Shown: piece by piece, positions 548-7,146 of the stretch
Position numbering within the stretch: position 1 is the stretch's first letter
Layout: each line of letters opens with the position of its first letter
Assembly: GCA_963771275.1 (NCBI GenBank)
Contig: CAVYSW010000003.1
Span: 257,037 to 321,036 of the forward strand
Direction of reading: 5' to 3'
DNA: 64,000 nt
Source of the DNA: an uncultured Gemmatimonadales bacterium
Lineage (GTDB): Bacteria; Gemmatimonadota; Gemmatimonadetes; Gemmatimonadales; GWC2-71-9
Notes under the pieces: generated by a model
Seen by the model: only the letters and a program-made list of their open reading frames with translations
Told to the model about the DNA's origin: nothing
The model's database searches: none
Program-made: the position numbers and the translations under genes

Positions 548-1330
548 TCACTTCTTGTCGGGGCCGTCGTCCTCTTCCACCAGCTCCGCGTCGTGGATCG
601 GCTCGCTCCCGGCCGTGCCGGCGGAGAGCTGCTGCGGCGCTTTCGTCTCCCCCGCACCCAGCAGTCCCATCTTCTGCTTCAGCTCCAGCAGCCGCTGATC
701 GGCGGATCCGTGGTACTCGAGCGCCGCGAACTCCTGCTGCAACGTGTCGCCGCTCAACTCCCCGGCGAGCTCGGCGGCCGCCAGGGCCTGGCGCTCCATA
801 TCGTCGATCTTCTCCTCCATCCGCGCGAACGTGTCGAACGCGCTCTGGTCACTCATCGAGTGCATCGTCTGCTGGATGCGCTGCTGGGCCTCGGCGCGCT
901 TCTGCCGGGCAACCAGGACGTTCTTCTTGCGCTTCAGCTCTTCGATCCGGTCGTTCATCTGGCGGAGGGAGCCCTTCAGGTTCTCCGTGTCCGCCTTGTG
1001 GCGCACCCAGGTCTCGTGGAGCTGCGTCGCGTTCTGCACGTGCTCCGACTGCCGCATGAGGGCCTGCTTGGCGAGATCGTCGCGCCCTTCCTGGACCGCC
1101 AGCATCGCGCGCCGCTCCCAATCCTCTGCCTGCTTCTTCTCGCGCTCCGATTGCGCCTGGAGCTTCTTCTCGTCGGCGATCGCCCCGGCCACGTCCTGCT
1201 TGGTCTTCGCAAGCTGGGTCCGCGCGTCGATCAGGGACTGCTCGAGGACCTTGGAGGGGTCCTCGGCGCGGCCGATGAGCGCGTTGATGTTCGCTTTGAT
1301 CACAGTCATCAAGCGCTGGAAGATCCCCAT
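548..1330 (-). CDS. pspA: PspA/IM30 family membrane-stress protein
   Basis: 260 aa. MGIFQRLMTVIKANINALIGRAEDPSKVLEQSLID.. is followed by a long heptad-rich coiled coil, typical of PspA/Vipp1. Confidence 0.85.
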   Translation of the reverse strand: MGIFQRLMTVIKANINALIGRAEDPSKVLEQSLIDARTQLAKTKQDVAGAIADEKKLQAQSEREKKQAEDWERRAMLAVQEGRDDLAKQALMRQSEHVQNATQLHETWVRHKADTENLKGSLRQMNDRIEELKRKKNVLVARQKRAEAQQRIQQTMHSMSDQSAFDTFARMEEKIDDMERQALAAAELAGELSGDTLQQEFAALEYHGSADQRLLELKQKMGLLGAGETKAPQQLSAGTAGSEPIHDAELVEEDDGPDKK

Positions 1331-1476
1331 GGCTCCCCTACGCCTCCCGCGCCAGCCCTGTTCCGGCCGCGCGTCTCACAACGGGTTGAGTACTGCGACC
1401 GGCCGGGCGCTGCCCGGCGCTCCATTGGCCTGCTGGAAGATCGGCATCGGCACGCCTTTACGCCACCGGCCGGGCG

Positions 1477-1770
1477 CTAGCGGGCCGCCGGGCTCCCGTC
1501 CGGCGGCAGGACCCCCTGCCGCTGCTGGGCCAGAAGGCGCTCAGCGAAATCCAGCCGCTCGTGCACCTCCGCGACATCCTGGCGCAGCTCCTCCATCTCG
1601 TCCATCACCGCCTGGTTGGAGGCCTCGAGCCGCTGGACCACCTCGTCCGACGTGACCGCCTTGCCCTGAATCCGCGCAGCGAAGGCTCGACCCACCGGGG
1701 AGATCGCGAGCAAGAACAGCGTCCCGCCACCGAAGATGAACGTGATTGCGAGAATGCCTTCCATATCCAT
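1477..1770 (-). CDS. small single-pass membrane protein, PspB-like paralog 5 of 5
   Basis: 97 aa with an N-terminal TM helix (ILAITFIFGGGTLFLLAI) and a charged helical tail ending in HERLDFAERLL. Confidence 0.7.
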   Translation of the reverse strand: MDMEGILAITFIFGGGTLFLLAISPVGRAFAARIQGKAVTSDEVVQRLEASNQAVMDEMEELRQDVAEVHERLDFAERLLAQQRQGVLPPDGSPAAR

Positions 1771-1773
1771 GCC

Positions 1774-2073
1774 TCAATGCTCTCCTTCGATCAGGGGGCG
1801 CTGGGCGTGCTGCGCCAGCATGCGCTCGGCGAATTCCAGGCGCTCCTCCAGCTCCTCCCAGCGGTACGTCTTCCCTTCGAGCTGCTCGATCCGCTGCTGC
1901 AACCGCTGCAACTCCTCGCCGACCCCCGGCCCAGCCTCACCGAGGCGAGCGTCGTGCCGCCGGTCGAGGAACTTGTTCGCGATCCGGTAGATCCCGAACA
2001 GGACGAACCCGCCCATCCCCATGCCGATGATGGGGAACACGACATTCTGGACCCACACCCAGTCGCTGAACAC
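1774..2073 (-). CDS. small single-pass membrane protein, PspB-like paralog 4 of 5
   Basis: I place the start at GTG 2073-2071, two nt after the upstream stop, not at the track start 2193. The sequence VFSDWVWVQNVVFPIIGMGMGGFVLFG parallels the paralog 3 N-terminus, and the tail carries EERLEFAERML. Confidence 0.65.
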   Translation of the reverse strand: MFSDWVWVQNVVFPIIGMGMGGFVLFGIYRIANKFLDRRHDARLGEAGPGVGEELQRLQQRIEQLEGKTYRWEELEERLEFAERMLAQHAQRPLIEGEH

Positions 2074-2074
2074 C

Positions 2075-2344
2075 TCACGAGCCTCCGGGAAGTCCCTCGC
2101 GCCGCTGCTGCGCCAGCAGCCGCTCGGCAAAGTCCACCCGCTCTTCGAGCTCCGCCACCCGATCGACCATGGTCCCCAGTGCCTCCACCTCACCGCGCAG
2201 CCGTTCCAGCTCTTCGGCGGATGCCCCGCTCCCTACCTGGCGCCGGTCGATCCAGCGGACGATCAGCTTGTACGTCACCACCAGGAACACGATCCCGGTG
2301 GCCATCCCACCGAACGGTACGAGGAATACCCAGTCAGGGGGCAC
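2075..2344 (-). CDS. small single-pass membrane protein, PspB-like paralog 3 of 5
   Basis: 89 aa. MPPDWVFLVPFGGMATGIVFLVV forms the TM helix and the tail carries EERVDFAERLL. Confidence 0.7.
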   Translation of the reverse strand: MPPDWVFLVPFGGMATGIVFLVVTYKLIVRWIDRRQVGSGASAEELERLRGEVEALGTMVDRVAELEERVDFAERLLAQQRREGLPGGS

Positions 2345-2618
2345 GGGAGCCTCCGGACGGGCCCAAGTCGCCGTGCTCGCGTGCCCGGGTCAGCATCCGC
2401 TCCGTGAAGTCCTGACGCTCCTCGAGCTCGGCCAGGCGCTGCTTCAGGTTGTCGAGCTCGAGCAGGGCCTCCGCGGCGATGTCCGCGCTGCGCCCGTCGG
2501 GGGGCAGGCCGCGCCGGGCGATGCGATCCGCCAGGGCCCGGCCGAGCGGGCCGCGCAGGATCACCGCGCCGGCGATGCCCAGGATCGCCACGACCGGAAC
2601 GAGAACGTCCGGCCCCAT
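2334..2618 (-). CDS. small single-pass membrane protein, PspB-like paralog 2 of 5
   Basis: 94 aa. VLVPVVAILGIAGAVIL forms the TM helix and the tail carries EERQDFTERML. It overlaps the next paralog by 11 nt. Confidence 0.7.
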   Translation of the reverse strand: MGPDVLVPVVAILGIAGAVILRGPLGRALADRIARRGLPPDGRSADIAAEALLELDNLKQRLAELEERQDFTERMLTRAREHGDLGPSGGSRAP

Positions 2619-2619
2619 G

Positions 2620-2937
2620 CTACTCGCCCCCCCGCTCGATCCGCTCCGGCTCCTTGCGGGCGGTCAGCACCCGCTCCGCAAAGTCCAGCCGCTCGTGCAG
2701 CTCCATGACCTCGGCGCTGAGCTGCCGAACGGTCTGTCGCAGCTCCTGCGTGGCCTGCCCGTCGGCGGGGACCTGGACGGTCCACCGTCGCACCAGCCCG
2801 CGCACGAGCGTCCACAGGATCCCCATGCCCCCGACCGACGCCACCACGATCACGACCGCGATCGCGATGTTGACCGGGTCCGGGCCCTGATGAACGATGA
2901 AGTCCGGCAACTGCGGCGGTGCGGGGACCTGCTGCAT
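2620..2937 (-). CDS. small single-pass membrane protein, PspB-like paralog 1 of 5
   Basis: 105 aa. A GGAGGA Shine-Dalgarno lies 7 nt upstream of the ATG. The TM helix is IAIAVVIVVASVGGMGILW and the tail carries HERLDFAERVL. Confidence 0.7.
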   Translation of the reverse strand: MQQVPAPPQLPDFIVHQGPDPVNIAIAVVIVVASVGGMGILWTLVRGLVRRWTVQVPADGQATQELRQTVRQLSAEVMELHERLDFAERVLTARKEPERIERGGE

Positions 2938-3019
2938 GCGTCATTCCTCCGTCGTCCGAGACCCCCTACGTCCACTGTTTCAAAAAGTGTCGCTCGCGCG
3001 GGAAAAGTAAAGGCGTGGG

Positions 3020-5848
3020 TCAGCGCCGGAGCAGCGGCGCGAGATAGCGGGCCGTATGGGAGTGCGGCGCGCGCGCGACGTCCTCCGGAGACCCCTGCGC
3101 GACGATCGCGCCGCCCGCCGCCCCGCCCTCGGGCCCGAGATCGATCACCCAATCGGCGGTCTTCACGACCTCGAGGTTGTGCTCGATCACCACCACGGTG
3201 TTGCCACGGTCCACGAGGCGGTGCAGCACATCGAGCAGCAGGCGCACGTCCTCGAAATGCAGCCCCGTGGTCGGCTCGTCAAGGATGTACATCGTCCGCC
3301 CGGTGTCGCGCTTGGCCAGCTCGGTGGCGAGCTTGACCCGCTGGGCCTCGCCGCCCGACAGCGTGGTGGCGCTCTGGCCCAGGTGGACATAGCCCAGACC
3401 GACGTCGTTCAGCACCTCGAGCCGCCCCCGGATCCGCGGCTGCGCCTCGAAGAACTCGAGCGCATCGGCCACCGTCATGTCGAGCACGTCGGCGATCGAT
3501 CGGCCCTTGTAGCGGACGTCGAGCGTCTCCCGGTTGTAGCGCCGGCCCTTGCACACCTCGCACGGCACGTAGACGTCCGGCAGGAAGTGCATCTCGATGC
3601 GCACGAGCCCGTCGCCCTGGCAGGACTCGCACCGCCCGCCCTTCACGTTGAACGAGAACCGTCCCGGCCCGTACCCGCGAATCCGCGACTCGGCCAGCTG
3701 GGCGAACAGATCGCGGATCGGCGTGAACAGCCCCGCGTAGGTCGCCGGGTTCGAGCGCGGCGTCCGGCCGATCGGGCTCTGGTCGATCGCGAGGACCTTG
3801 TCGAGCTGCTCCAGACCCTCGATCCGGTCGTGCGCGCCGGGCAGGGTCTTCGTCCGGTAGAGATGCCGGGCCAGCCCGTGGTACAGGATGTCGGTGACCA
3901 GGGTGGACTTCCCGGAGCCCGAGACGCCCGTCACCGCGATGAACGCGCCGATCGGGAACGCGACGTCGAGGTTCTGCAGGTTGTGCTGCCGCGCCCCCAC
4001 GACGCGGACGGCCCGGGTGGGGAGCACGGCCCGGCGGGCCGCGGGCTGCGGGATCCGCAGTTCGCCCCGCAGATACCTGCCGGTGAGCGACGTCGGGTGC
4101 CGCACGACATCGTCGACCGACCCCTCCGCGACCACCTCACCCCCGAACCGCCCCGCACGTGGCCCGAGATCGATCACGTGGTCGGCGGCGCGGATCGTGT
4201 CGGCATCGTGCTCGACCACGATCACCGTGTTGCCCAGGTCGCGCAGCCCGCGCAGCGTGTCGAGCAGCCGGCCGTTGTCGCGCGGGTGGAGTCCGATGGA
4301 CGGCTCGTCGAGGATGTACAGCACGCCGACCAGCCGGCTGCCGATTTGCGTGGCGAGGCGGATGCGCTGCGCTTCCCCGCCCGAGAGCGACTCGGCCGCA
4401 CGGCCCAACGTGAGGTAGGCGAGACCCACGTCGCGGAGGAACGCCAGCCGCTCGACGACCTCGCGCAGGATCGGGCCCGCGATCTCGCGATCGATGGTGC
4501 CGCCGGGCTGGCCGCGCAGCGGGATCTGCTCGAAGAACTGCAGCGCCTCGGACACCGACAGGGCCACGATGTCGCCGAGGCTCCGGCCGTGGACCAGCAC
4601 GCTGAGGCTCTCCGGCTTGAGCCGCCGGCCGCCGCACGCGTCGCACAGGATCTCGGTCATGAACTCACCGAGCTGCTCGCGCACGGCATCCGAGCTGGTC
4701 TCGCGGTAGCGGCGCTCGACGTTCTTGATGATGCCCTCCCAGACGCTCTCGTAGGTGGCGCCGCCGCTCCCCGCGGGGAACCTCAGCTTGCGGTCCGGCA
4801 GGCCGTCGAGCAGCAGCCGGCGGACCCGTTCGGACAGCGCTCCCCACGGCGCCTCCAGGCGGAACCGGAACGTCGTCGCGAGCGTCGGCAGCACCACCTT
4901 GCGCAGGTACCCCGTGGGCTCGCCCCACGGCAGGACCACGCCTTCGAGCAGGGAGATCTGCGGATCGCCCAGCACCAGGGCCTCGCTCACCTCCCGCCGG
5001 GTGCCGAGCCCGCCGCACGCGGGACACGCACCGTAGGGCGAGTTGAACGAGAACTGGCGCGGCTCGAGCTCCGCCAGCGAATAGCCACACTGGGGGCAGG
5101 CGAACCGCTCGGAGAAGAGCGTCTTCTGGCCGTCCCGCACGACCTCGACCAGCCCGTCCGCGGCTTTGAGGGCCGTCTCGATCGAATCGTGCAGCCGGCC
5201 GCGATCCGCCGGGCGCACCACCAGCCGGTCGACGATCAGGCCGATGTCGTGGCTCACCCGGCGGTTGAGCCGCGGCGGGGACGCGAGCTCGTGGACCGCG
5301 CCGTCCACGCGTGCCCGGACGAAGCCCTGGCGGCGCGCGCCCTCGAACAGATCGTGGAACTCGCCCTTGCGCCCGCGGACCAGCGGGGCCACGACCTCGA
5401 TCCGCGTCCCCTCCGGCCACTGCAGCACCGCCTCACTGATCTGCGAGGCGGTCTGTCGCCGGATGGCCGCGCCGTCGTGCGGACAGTGGGGGATGCCGAC
5501 GCGCGCCCAGAGGAGCCGCAGGTAGTCGTAGATCTCCGTCACGGTCCCGACGGTCGATCGCGGGTTCTGCCCCGCCGTCTTCTGCTCGATCGAGATCGCC
5601 GGCGACAGCCCCTCGATGGCGTCGACGTCCGGCTTCTCCATGAGGCCGAGGAATTGGCGGGCGTACGCCGACAGCGACTCCACGTAGCGGCGTTGCCCCT
5701 CGGCGTAGATCGTGTCGAACGCGAGGGACGACTTGCCGGAGCCCGAGAGTCCGGTGATCACGGTGAGCCGGTTGCGCGGGATTTCCACGGTGATATTACG
5801 CAGGTTGTGCACCCGCGCGCCGCGCACGACGAGGCGGTCGTCGGCCAT
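3020..5848 (-). CDS. uvrA: excinuclease ABC subunit A
   Basis: From ATG 5848 the product is 942 aa: [66 protein letters not shown]. It has two ABC ATPase modules and CxxC zinc-finger pairs. The 1310-aa track ORF adds an Arg/Pro-rich non-coding-looking extension. Confidence 0.95.
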
Positions 5849-5992
5849 AGCCGTCGAACGTAGTGGCACCGGGAACCCGCGGTCAACGGGCGGGGGCGCG
5901 CCGCGGACCGGGGGCGGACCGGACCTGTCTTGCCACACCCGGGGCGCCGGGATACTTTGGCGGTCCCTGCTGCGCGAGGCGATCCGCGAGCC

Positions 5993-6340
5993 ATGGCCGC
6001 GCCCGATGTCAGCGACGCCGTGATGGTGTTCACGATGCTCGAGACCCCCGACGCCGCCCGGCTCCTGGTGGAGCGCCTCGTCGAGCAGCGCATCGTGGCC
6101 TGCGGCACGATCGTTCCGGCCGCAACGTCGGTGTACCGCTGGGAGGGCACGATCACCACCGCGAGCGAAGCGCTGGTCCTGCTGAAGACGACGCGCGATC
6201 GCTGGCCCGCCCTCCGCGCGGCGGTCGATCGCCATCACCCGTATCGCGTTCCCGAGCTGCTCGCCGTGCCGGTGGTGCACGGCCTGCCCGCCTACCTGGC
6301 ATGGGTCGCGGCGGAAACCACACCCGGAGAAACTCCGTGA
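5993..6340 (+). CDS. cutA: CutA1 divalent-cation tolerance family protein
   Basis: From ATG 5993: [54 protein letters not shown].. Confidence 0.8.
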
Positions 6341-7146
6341 CACGGCGCCATCGACGCCGGGCTCGACGCCGCCGGGGCTACACCCCAGTGGCGCGGCAGC
6401 CCGCCGAGTCCGCCGGGGCCTCGCCCTCGCGCCCCGCATTGCCGTTCGAGCTGGTCGAGCCGGCCCCCCTGGCGGCATCGGACGGGACGCCCGCCCCGGA
6501 GGTGACGGCCGTCGCCGGGACGTCGCTGCCCAGTGAGGAGGTGTTGTATCGCGCGGCGCAGCAAGCGGCGCAGCGCGGCGACGCGGTGCGCGCACAGGCG
6601 ATCTACCGGGAGCTCCTCGTGGCGTGCCCCGGCCACGTCGACGCGCGCAGCAGCTTCGCCCTGCTGCTCGACCGTCTTGGCCAGCACGACACGGCGCTGG
6701 CCGAGCTCGACCTCTGCCTCGAGCATGCGCCCGACGATCCCGGCGCGCTGATCCGGCGCGGGACGCTGCGCAGCTCGCTGGGACTGTTCGCGCAGGCGGA
6801 GACCGATCTGCGCCGCGCGCTGCGGCTGGATCCGGCCAGCGCGGACGGGCACCTTGCCCTGGGGCTGGTCCTGTCGCGCAAAGGCCTGTGGCGGGACGCG
6901 ATTCCGCACCTGCGGCGCGTGCTGGAAGTCGACCCCAGTCGGGCGACCGCATGGGATGCGCTCGGGGAAGCCCTCAACCACATGGACGATCTCGATGGAG
7001 CGCTGCAGGCGTTCCAGCGCTCCGCGGAGCTGCGCCCGACCAACGCCCGGGCCCTGCGCGGACTGGGCGTCGTCTATGACCGGTTGAACCGGCCGCGCGA
7101 GGCGGCACTCATGTATCGTCGCTCGCGGGAGCTCACGGGCACGTGA
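6337..7146 (+). CDS. TPR repeat protein
   Basis: GTG 6337 overlaps the cutA TGA (GTGA). Repeated 34-aa TPR-like units are visible (..AQAIYRELLVACPGHVDARSSFALLL.., ..DAIPHLRRVLEVDPSRATAWDALGEAL..). Confidence 0.7.
   Translation: MTRRHRRRARRRRGYTPVARQPAESAGASPSRPALPFELVEPAPLAASDGTPAPEVTAVAGTSLPSEEVLYRAAQQAAQRGDAVRAQAIYRELLVACPGHVDARSSFALLLDRLGQHDTALAELDLCLEHAPDDPGALIRRGTLRSSLGLFAQAETDLRRALRLDPASADGHLALGLVLSRKGLWRDAIPHLRRVLEVDPSRATAWDALGEALNHMDDLDGALQAFQRSAELRPTNARALRGLGVVYDRLNRPREAALMYRRSRELTGT

Follow-up and report, generated by a model that had tools for sequence, protein, structure and literature searches.

Directly upstream of pspA in an uncultured Gemmatimonadales bacterium (GTDB lineage Bacteria; Gemmatimonadota; Gemmatimonadetes; Gemmatimonadales; GWC2-71-9) stand five tandem genes for small single-pass membrane proteins, and we propose, with a probability of roughly 0.55, that this array encodes a lineage-specific membrane partner module of PspA, an anchor or sensor analogous to PspB/C or LiaI. 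The locus lies in a stretch of 64,000 nucleotides (nt) (NCBI GenBank assembly GCA_963771275.1, contig CAVYSW010000003.1, positions 257,037 to 321,036 of the forward strand), which we call the window; positions given below count from its first letter. Membranes in every domain of life are remodelled and repaired by PspA, Vipp1 and ESCRT-III proteins, and to our knowledge, the way in which bacterial PspA is targeted and switched on is largely unknown beyond the well-studied PspBC, Lia and actinobacterial systems.

The array and its proteins

All features of the locus are on the minus strand, where the end of uvrA is followed by the five small genes, here named g1 to g5, a 146-nt spacer and pspA. 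Gene coordinates and a hidden Markov model (HMM) of the protein family agree with the original prediction, made from the letters alone, of five same-strand single-pass paralogs that precede pspA and have a C-terminal motif in common. The junctions that it gave (a 1-nt gap, an 11-nt overlap, a 1-nt gap and a 3-nt gap) and its five motif strings proved exact. In the following list, protein lengths are in amino acids (aa), E values come from the family HMM and ratios of nonsynonymous to synonymous substitution rates (dN/dS) come from comparison with L082, a close relative on a JGI metagenome contig.

3022..3020, minus strand: uvrA stop codon, followed by an 82-nt gap to g1
2938..3019, minus strand: uvrA-g1 intergenic region, candidate promoter and 5' untranslated region (UTR) of the array
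2937..2620, minus strand: g1, 105 aa, ATG start, subfamily I, E = 1.4e-20, dN/dS 0.16
2618..2334, minus strand: g2, 94 aa, ATG start, subfamily B, E = 2.2e-22, dN/dS 0.32
2344..2075, minus strand: g3, 89 aa, GTG start, subfamily C, E = 3.1e-33, dN/dS 0.11
2073..1774, minus strand: g4, 99 aa, GTG start, subfamily C, E = 8.7e-27, dN/dS 0.18
1770..1477, minus strand: g5, 97 aa, subfamily A, E = 6.6e-22, dN/dS 0.10
1331..1476, minus strand: spacer between g5 and pspA, 146 nt, with two conserved blocks
1330..548, minus strand: pspA, 260 aa, PspA/IM30 (bacterial ESCRT-III-like), Pfam PF04012, dN/dS 0.07

The five small genes are translationally coupled, and each is preceded by a Shine-Dalgarno sequence of the GGAGG type, which lies 8 nt 5' of the ATG in g1 and 5 nt 5' of the GTG in g3. 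For g4, the mechanical list of open reading frames (ORFs) reaches 2193, and the GTG at 2073 is backed by GGAGG 8 nt upstream. Translation of g5 more likely starts at the ATG at 1764 (95 aa) than at the ATG at 1770, because the former has the better Shine-Dalgarno spacing (GAGG, 7 nt) and is the form found both in the NCBI record and in L082. The pspA product scores 162.6 bits with PF04012 (PspA_IM30; cutoff 33.9, E = 1.4e-47, profile positions 1-217 of 220), and JGI records label its near homologues 'phage shock protein A'. Its score for the NCBIfam equivalog TIGR02977 (135.9 bits) falls under the cutoff of 242.95, so the window PspA is a member of the family and not an E. coli-type equivalog.

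Purifying selection acts on all five small genes, as dN/dS of 0.10-0.32 (Nei-Gojobori method; dS 0.58-0.82) demonstrates, and the coding conservation whose absence would have refuted the original prediction is thereby borne out. The region has 67-72% GC and many long spurious ORFs cross it in other frames, which would fit the view that the small ORFs are themselves spurious open frames of non-coding, GC-rich DNA. This view is refuted by the substitution ratios, by thousands of homologues with the invariant motif, by the Shine-Dalgarno site at each gene and by an independent gene caller, which gives proteins of 105, 94, 92, 99 and 95 aa and a 260-aa PspA in L082. It is also refuted by the back-translated pattern ERx[D/E]FxER, which occurs five times in the 64-kb window, each time at the array locus, against an expectation of 0.00 from 100 dinucleotide-preserving shuffles. 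A scan of the whole 64 kb with the family HMM found no further members besides g1 to g5.

Each small protein has a very short periplasmic N-terminus, one transmembrane (TM) helix and a cytoplasmic coiled-coil-like helix of ~45 residues. The most strongly hydrophobic stretch of 19 residues begins at about residue 5-11 in g2 to g5 and at residue 24 in g1, which carries a 23-aa periplasmic N-terminal stub. Among 257 family members, the mean number of lysines and arginines is 0.33 in the 15 residues before the TM helix versus 3.79 in the 15 residues after it, and the C-terminal flank is the more positive one in 255 of the 257, which predicts an N-out/C-in topology. The hydrophobic segments are not cleavable signal peptides, since the positive charges come after and not before them. 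AlphaFold2 models based on alignments of ~120 sequences consist of two helices with a short break, at residues 8-36 and 41-83 in g3 (predicted local distance difference test (pLDDT) 89.4) and 3-36 and 41-85 in g5 (pLDDT 82.9). A Foldseek search of the g3 model against the PDB returned zero matches.

The paralogs are 23-39% identical to each other, with seven invariant residues in the C-terminal motif (E..ER..F.ER.L); across 119 diverse family members, the E, R, F, E and R of the motif are invariant. Conservation peaks in R-V-A-E-L-E-E-R-V-D-F-A-E-R-L-L-A-Q-Q-R, and the TM and juxtamembrane parts differ by subfamily. The N-terminal subtypes named in the original prediction are real: g3 and g4 belong to a DW...GM.G TM type with the common pattern DW...P..GM.xG...Y[KR]...R[WF][IL]DRR, and g2 and g5 to a P-x-G-R-A-x-A-x-R-I type, the common pattern directly after the TM helix being [SG]-P-[LIV]-G-[KR]-A-x-A-x-R-I. 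In g1, the stub, TM helix and cytoplasmic helix lead to the motif HERLDFAERVL. In g2, the TM helix is followed by the juxtamembrane sequence GPLGRALADRI, a helix and the motif EERQDFTERML; g3 has PPDW, a TM helix with GM.TG, then YK..VRWIDRR and a helix that ends in EERVDFAERLL. In g4, which goes back to an old tandem duplication of the g3 type, the motif reads EERLEFAERML; in g5, the TM helix is followed by SPVGRAFAARI and by a helix with the motif HERLDFAERLL. One face of the motif helix shows V, L, V, A/F and L/L. We take the motif to be similar to the coiled-coil 'trigger' consensus xxLExchxcxccx, a sequence reportedly described by Kammerer et al. in 1998.

A family linked to pspA in ordered arrays

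The five proteins share the features that define a wider family: a length of 85-135 aa, an N-terminal TM helix, a tandem position upstream of pspA and a cytoplasmic helix that ends, ~22 residues short of the C-terminus, in the motif E-[EH]-R-x-[DE]-F-x-E-R-x-L. Across the family, a median of 44 residues separates the TM helix from the motif, and the median distance from there to the C-terminus is 22 residues. A search with g3 retrieved 171 homologues, none with a Pfam domain, and those named by organism are all from metagenome-assembled genomes of Gemmatimonadota. At a threshold of E ≤ 1e-3, a profile search of 1.84 billion representative proteins, clustered at 50% identity, matched 3,184 clusters, and at E ≤ 1e-10 it matched 797; almost all have lengths of 85-135 aa. 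When g1 to g5 and 32 diverse members were scanned against Pfam and NCBIfam, no model for the family was found, nor any match to a characterized unrelated family of the kind that the original prediction had named as a way to refute it. We also scanned one genome per GTDB species and confirmed >430 stretches; the best 80 of these, which were analysed as loci, are all from Gemmatimonadota, to which the family appears to be specific.

In the 80 genome loci, arrays comprise 2-14 same-strand tandem members (one array of two, in L045, is cut by the end of its contig), with the exception of L048 and L049, which have one member each. An array of seven genes is present in L070, from an uncultured Gemmatimonas. 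Of the loci found via the small proteins, 68 extend 1 kb or more past the array, and 66 of these carry pspA on the same strand no more than 800 nt downstream. The two exceptions are the solitary copies, which lie between alpha/beta-hydrolase and M20 peptidase genes in one case (L048:5989-6276) and at L049:4312-4545 in the other. The reciprocal test used 80 metagenome loci retrieved by PspA alone, at 62-97% identity to the window PspA. All of those with at least 900 nt upstream of pspA (61/61) carry at least one same-strand upstream family member, and arrays for which at least 4.5 kb are available hold 2-9 copies. The preferential linkage to pspA that the original prediction called for is thus near-obligate in both directions.

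Such linkage might be synteny inherited within one phylum, with an array functionally unrelated to PspA whose small envelope proteins have a role of their own, perhaps as a hetero-oligomeric coiled-coil scaffold. After pspA, the most conserved neighbour is uvrA, which lies upstream in 40 of 73 loci with no suspected functional tie, a spacer of 100-150 nt or an intervening gene parts the array from pspA, and solitary copies occur elsewhere in genomes. The resemblance of the motif to a trigger sequence would presumably fit self-assembly rather than PspA binding. Against these points, linkage to pspA is far tighter than that to uvrA or to the genes 3' of pspA, which differ among loci (cysS, an ABC ATPase, a 361-aa protein and a permease-like membrane protein); it is still seen at 62% PspA identity, with the array members invariably on the pspA strand, and through changes between 2 and 14 copies. 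We consider independence of the array from PspA unlikely.

The arrays are ordered as well as linked. In related arrays (L002, L004, L005 and L006), the best matches of each of g1 to g5 are the genes at the corresponding rank, the orthologues of g1 being first in all four and the best matches of g4 likewise holding its rank. With subfamilies defined by clustering of the region before the motif, the window array reads I-B-C-C-A and its relatives IB.CCA, IBCCA, IBCCCA, BCCAL and BCAL, and a second clade of arrays reads (B)FFAAD(H)E..G/K. Of the 80 loci, 64 contain subfamily A and 63 contain subfamily B, the latter mostly near the 5' end of the array; subfamily I always comes first, and subfamilies L and K come last. 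Adjacent members are of the same subfamily in 93 of 374 pairs versus 39.2 ± 5.0 expected from within-array shuffles, an excess from which it follows that arrays grow by tandem duplication. The members are old, differentiated and fixed in order, which argues for non-redundant roles over mere dosage amplification. The description 'five-fold amplified' in the original prediction consequently understates the arrangement, which is one instance of a phylum-wide system of 2-14 differentiated, ordered paralogs and not a local amplification.

Divergent pspA-proximal members carry a degraded motif (for example ELAERIDVSERV or ELGERMDFTERVL), as seen at L003:7110-7457, at L011:7220-7564 and in subfamily L, an example of which is the last array member of L039. 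Such motifs suggest that the 3' ends of arrays are still diverging or decaying.

Comparison with PspB and other known systems

The five proteins had been described as PspB-like, a likeness that stands for architecture and topology and fails for sequence. They share with PspB a length of ~75-100 aa, a single N-terminal TM helix, the N-out/C-in topology and a cytoplasmic alpha-helix with an R-[IV]-x-x-L-E-x-x-[LV]-D-like stretch. These traits, and their place in the pspA operon, would be expected if the small proteins were highly divergent PspB homologues, amplified in Gemmatimonadota and acting as PspA-binding signal transducers. Some profile matches point the same way: g3, the best of the five, reaches 20.2 bits for Pfam PF06667 (PspB; cutoff 25.6, E = 6e-4) and 24.7 bits for TIGR02976 (PspB; cutoff 51.7, E = 2e-5, with most of the model covered). 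TIGR02976 is touched by 9 of 40 members of class II, the most PspB-like class of the family (best E = 3e-6), more than any other NCBIfam model. In addition, hhalign sets R[VI]xxLExx[VL]D on the conserved C-terminal helix of PspB with the profiles of the whole family, of class II and of two of the five subfamilies (those of g2 and g3).

Every one of the matches to PspB models lies under the curated cutoff, however, and the Pfam PspB model is touched by 2 of 32 diverse members and by 5 of 40 class-II members (E < 0.1). RIC3, a eukaryotic family, and TraQ, both unrelated families with a TM helix plus a coiled coil, match class II as well or better (12 of 40, best E = 5e-7, and 8 of 40, respectively). 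The hhalign probability is 42% with the whole-family profile, 34% with that of class II and 1-28% with those of single subfamilies, over 14-28 columns, in a test of low power because the PspB profile is shallow (enterobacteria only, effective number of sequences (Neff) 1.4), the search with E. coli PspB having given near-identical enterobacterial sequences alone. A position-specific scoring matrix (PSSM) of the motif scores E. coli PspB no differently from shuffled sequence (p = 0.41). PspB lacks the invariant ELEERxDFxERLL motif and is encoded by one gene, which lies downstream of pspA, whereas the array lies upstream and has 2-14 differentiated paralogs; duplicates of PspB are only occasional, in proteobacterial operons (PMC11237479).

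The obligate PspB partners PspC and PspF are also missing. Searches with E. coli queries (phmmer) found no PspB, PspC or PspD among the ORFs of 160 related loci, covering the local neighbourhood of ~5-6 kb around the array or pspA, or in the whole window; for PspF they found a single NtrC-like match, in L009. The original prediction was correct that neither pspC nor pspF is nearby, and pspA is the sole Psp gene among the Pfam-annotated neighbours in L082. Membership in the PspB family is not established by matches that stay under cutoff and are no better than those to RIC3 and TraQ, and we regard divergent PspB homology as improbable. The small proteins may nonetheless work like PspB, whatever their family.

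Other systems resemble the array in part. LiaI of the Bacillus subtilis liaIH operon is a small membrane protein encoded directly 5' of a PspA-family gene on the same strand; it anchors LiaH at the membrane, as determined by bacterial two-hybrid analysis, and recruitment of a PspA homologue to the membrane is the role that we propose here (PMC9239133). In contrast to the array proteins, LiaI is a multi-TM protein of the LiaI-LiaF-TM family with a 4TM region (PMC11237479), is encoded by a single gene under LiaRS control, has no long cytoplasmic coiled coil and shows no sequence relationship to them. No array protein matches a Lia family in Pfam or NCBIfam, and each has one TM helix. PspM (Rv2743c, in clgR-pspA-pspM-pspN) is likewise a lineage-specific integral membrane partner in a pspA operon without homology to PspB/C (PMC11237479), but it is encoded downstream of pspA by a single gene, differs in architecture and is confined to Actinobacteria.

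The conserved gene string is uvrA, array, a cesT/tir-like gene in some loci, and pspA. In 38 of the 80 genome loci (L013:7021-7410, L026:7438-7839, L030:2795-3232 and 35 others) and in 24 of the 61 metagenome loci, the array is separated from pspA by a CesT_Tir_1 gene (PF22550, E about 5e-25, ~130 aa). The 38 loci reproduce the CesT/Tir-PspA dyad (YjfI-YjfJ type) of Ravi et al. 2024 (PMC11237479), whose published contexts comprise band-7/flotillin genes, polyamine genes and AAA+ ATPases and no single-pass arrays. The window differs in having no CesT/Tir gene upstream of pspA; phmmer found none in the spacer or in the rest of the 64 kb. As the motif is intact in the window all the same, a CesT/Tir protein encoded at the locus cannot be its sole partner.

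Neither the family nor its invariant motif nor the ordered array of 2-14 genes appears to have been described before, as the original prediction had supposed of the arrangement. Two large surveys of Psp systems (PMC11237479, PMC9239133) do not mention Gemmatimonadetes or Gemmatimonadota in their main text, and text searches of the literature on the phylum with PspA or 'phage shock', and on the motif strings, returned nothing relevant. The surveys could not detect the family, because they found neighbours by known domains and the family has no Pfam model. The general theme of lineage-specific small membrane proteins beside pspA is already known.

A proposed partner module for PspA

Small membrane proteins encoded next to pspA are partners of PspA elsewhere, as in the cases of PspB/C, LiaI and PspM (PMC9239133, PMC11237479). 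By analogy, we propose that the array proteins form a membrane-embedded partner module of PspA in Gemmatimonadota. The invariant cytoplasmic segment would serve as a common docking or oligomerization surface, for PspA, for the paralogs or for both, and the divergent TM and juxtamembrane parts would give each subfamily its own membrane input or its own position in a hetero-oligomer. The module would then recruit or activate the ESCRT-III-like PspA at the membrane, as PspB/C do in E. coli and LiaI does in Bacillus. We hold any specific mode of action, be it anchor, sensor or inhibitor, with less confidence than the partner-module reading itself; the multi-input or stoichiometric sensing suggested in the original prediction is a plausible function.

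An inhibitory mode would make the array proteins negative regulators or cappers of PspA polymerization that hold PspA inactive at the membrane until it is released by stress. The same genomic context speaks for this as for a partner module in general, the invariant motif implies one common binding partner, and inhibitory complexes of the PspA family are known, such as PspA-PspF in E. coli (PMC9239133). On the other side, none of the evidence sets a capper apart from an anchor, and no likeness to any PspA helix was detected in the array proteins. We judge such capping to be very unlikely.

A further possibility, which we put forward as speculative, is that the array supplies expandable, non-interchangeable membrane adaptors. 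The paralogs might co-assemble through the invariant C-terminal helix into a membrane-embedded hetero-oligomeric platform that nucleates or positions PspA polymers, the TM and juxtamembrane segments of each subfamily might direct PspA to different membrane states, and the set might evolve by tandem birth and death within a range of 2-14 copies.

Conserved non-coding blocks flank the array on both sides. Upstream, the uvrA-g1 region contains two T-rich blocks, CTTTACTTTT ... GCGACACTTTTTGAAAC (3012..2977, with GCGACACTTTTTGAAAC at about 2993..2977), that stand in an otherwise ~70% GC region and are conserved in L082 despite a flanking dS of 0.6-0.8; they are candidate promoter elements of the array. 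In the spacer before pspA, the blocks 1466..1432 (GTGGCGTAAAGGCGTGCCGATGCCGATCTTCCAGC) and 1372..1331 (GCGCGGCCGGAACAGGGCTGGCGCGGGAGGCGTAGGGGAGCC, ending in GGGAGGCGTAGGGGAGCC just before the pspA ATG) are nearly identical in L082, despite 40-50% divergence at synonymous sites of the genes on either side. The two blocks may act as a promoter or operator of pspA or as a 5' UTR element, and in most related loci GGGAGG lies ~12 nt before the pspA ATG. The uvrA-g1 region and the spacer contain no sigma-70 consensus and no convincing terminator, and neither has an Rfam match at E ≤ 1. A sigma-54-like TGGC...GC in a conserved spacer block was rejected, its GG-N11-GC spacing being off by one. A hairpin 5' of the pspA Shine-Dalgarno sequence, seen in many loci, was likewise rejected, with energies equal to those of dinucleotide shuffles (mean z = -0.37).

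At the upstream end, the mechanical uvrA ORF (3020..6952, minus strand, 1,310 aa) is too long. Conserved UvrA begins at about position 5857, and the extension overlaps divergent genes for a CutA1-like and a TPR protein (5863..7146 / 5930..6340, plus strand), in agreement with the gene calls in L082.

Several points weigh against the partner-module reading. The main weakness of the operon reading concerns transcription: the array and pspA may be co-transcribed, or pspA may have a promoter of its own. The conserved spacer blocks, together with the cesT/tir-like gene in half of the relatives, mean that pspA could have its own promoter and regulation. All of the evidence is genomic context from one phylum, whose loci lack phylogenetic independence, and the solitary members away from pspA imply that the family is not strictly confined to the pspA locus. 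The window PspA has an N-terminal amphipathic helix (MGIFQRLMTVIKANINALI), and by analogy with other PspA proteins, a PspA with its own amphipathic helix may not need an anchor. As regards docking, we considered the motif as a mimic of PspA helix alpha5 (xEE[KR][IV]Dx[MA]ER) and rejected it: hhalign gave a probability of 0.4%, and the best PSSM site in PspA is alpha5, yet its score equals that of shuffled sequence (p = 0.41), leaving alpha5 mimicry unsupported.

The locus reveals a large unannotated family (~3,200 clusters at 50% identity), nearly always encoded 5' of pspA in a poorly studied phylum, and a multi-paralog architecture with conserved order that is unusual. If true, an adaptor platform with birth and death of 2-14 copies would have no described counterpart in the Psp, Lia and Vipp1 systems. 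The array proteins are a candidate new PspA partner and a new family for protein databases, and their loci offer a natural system in which to ask why a membrane-stress effector would need many differentiated single-pass partners.

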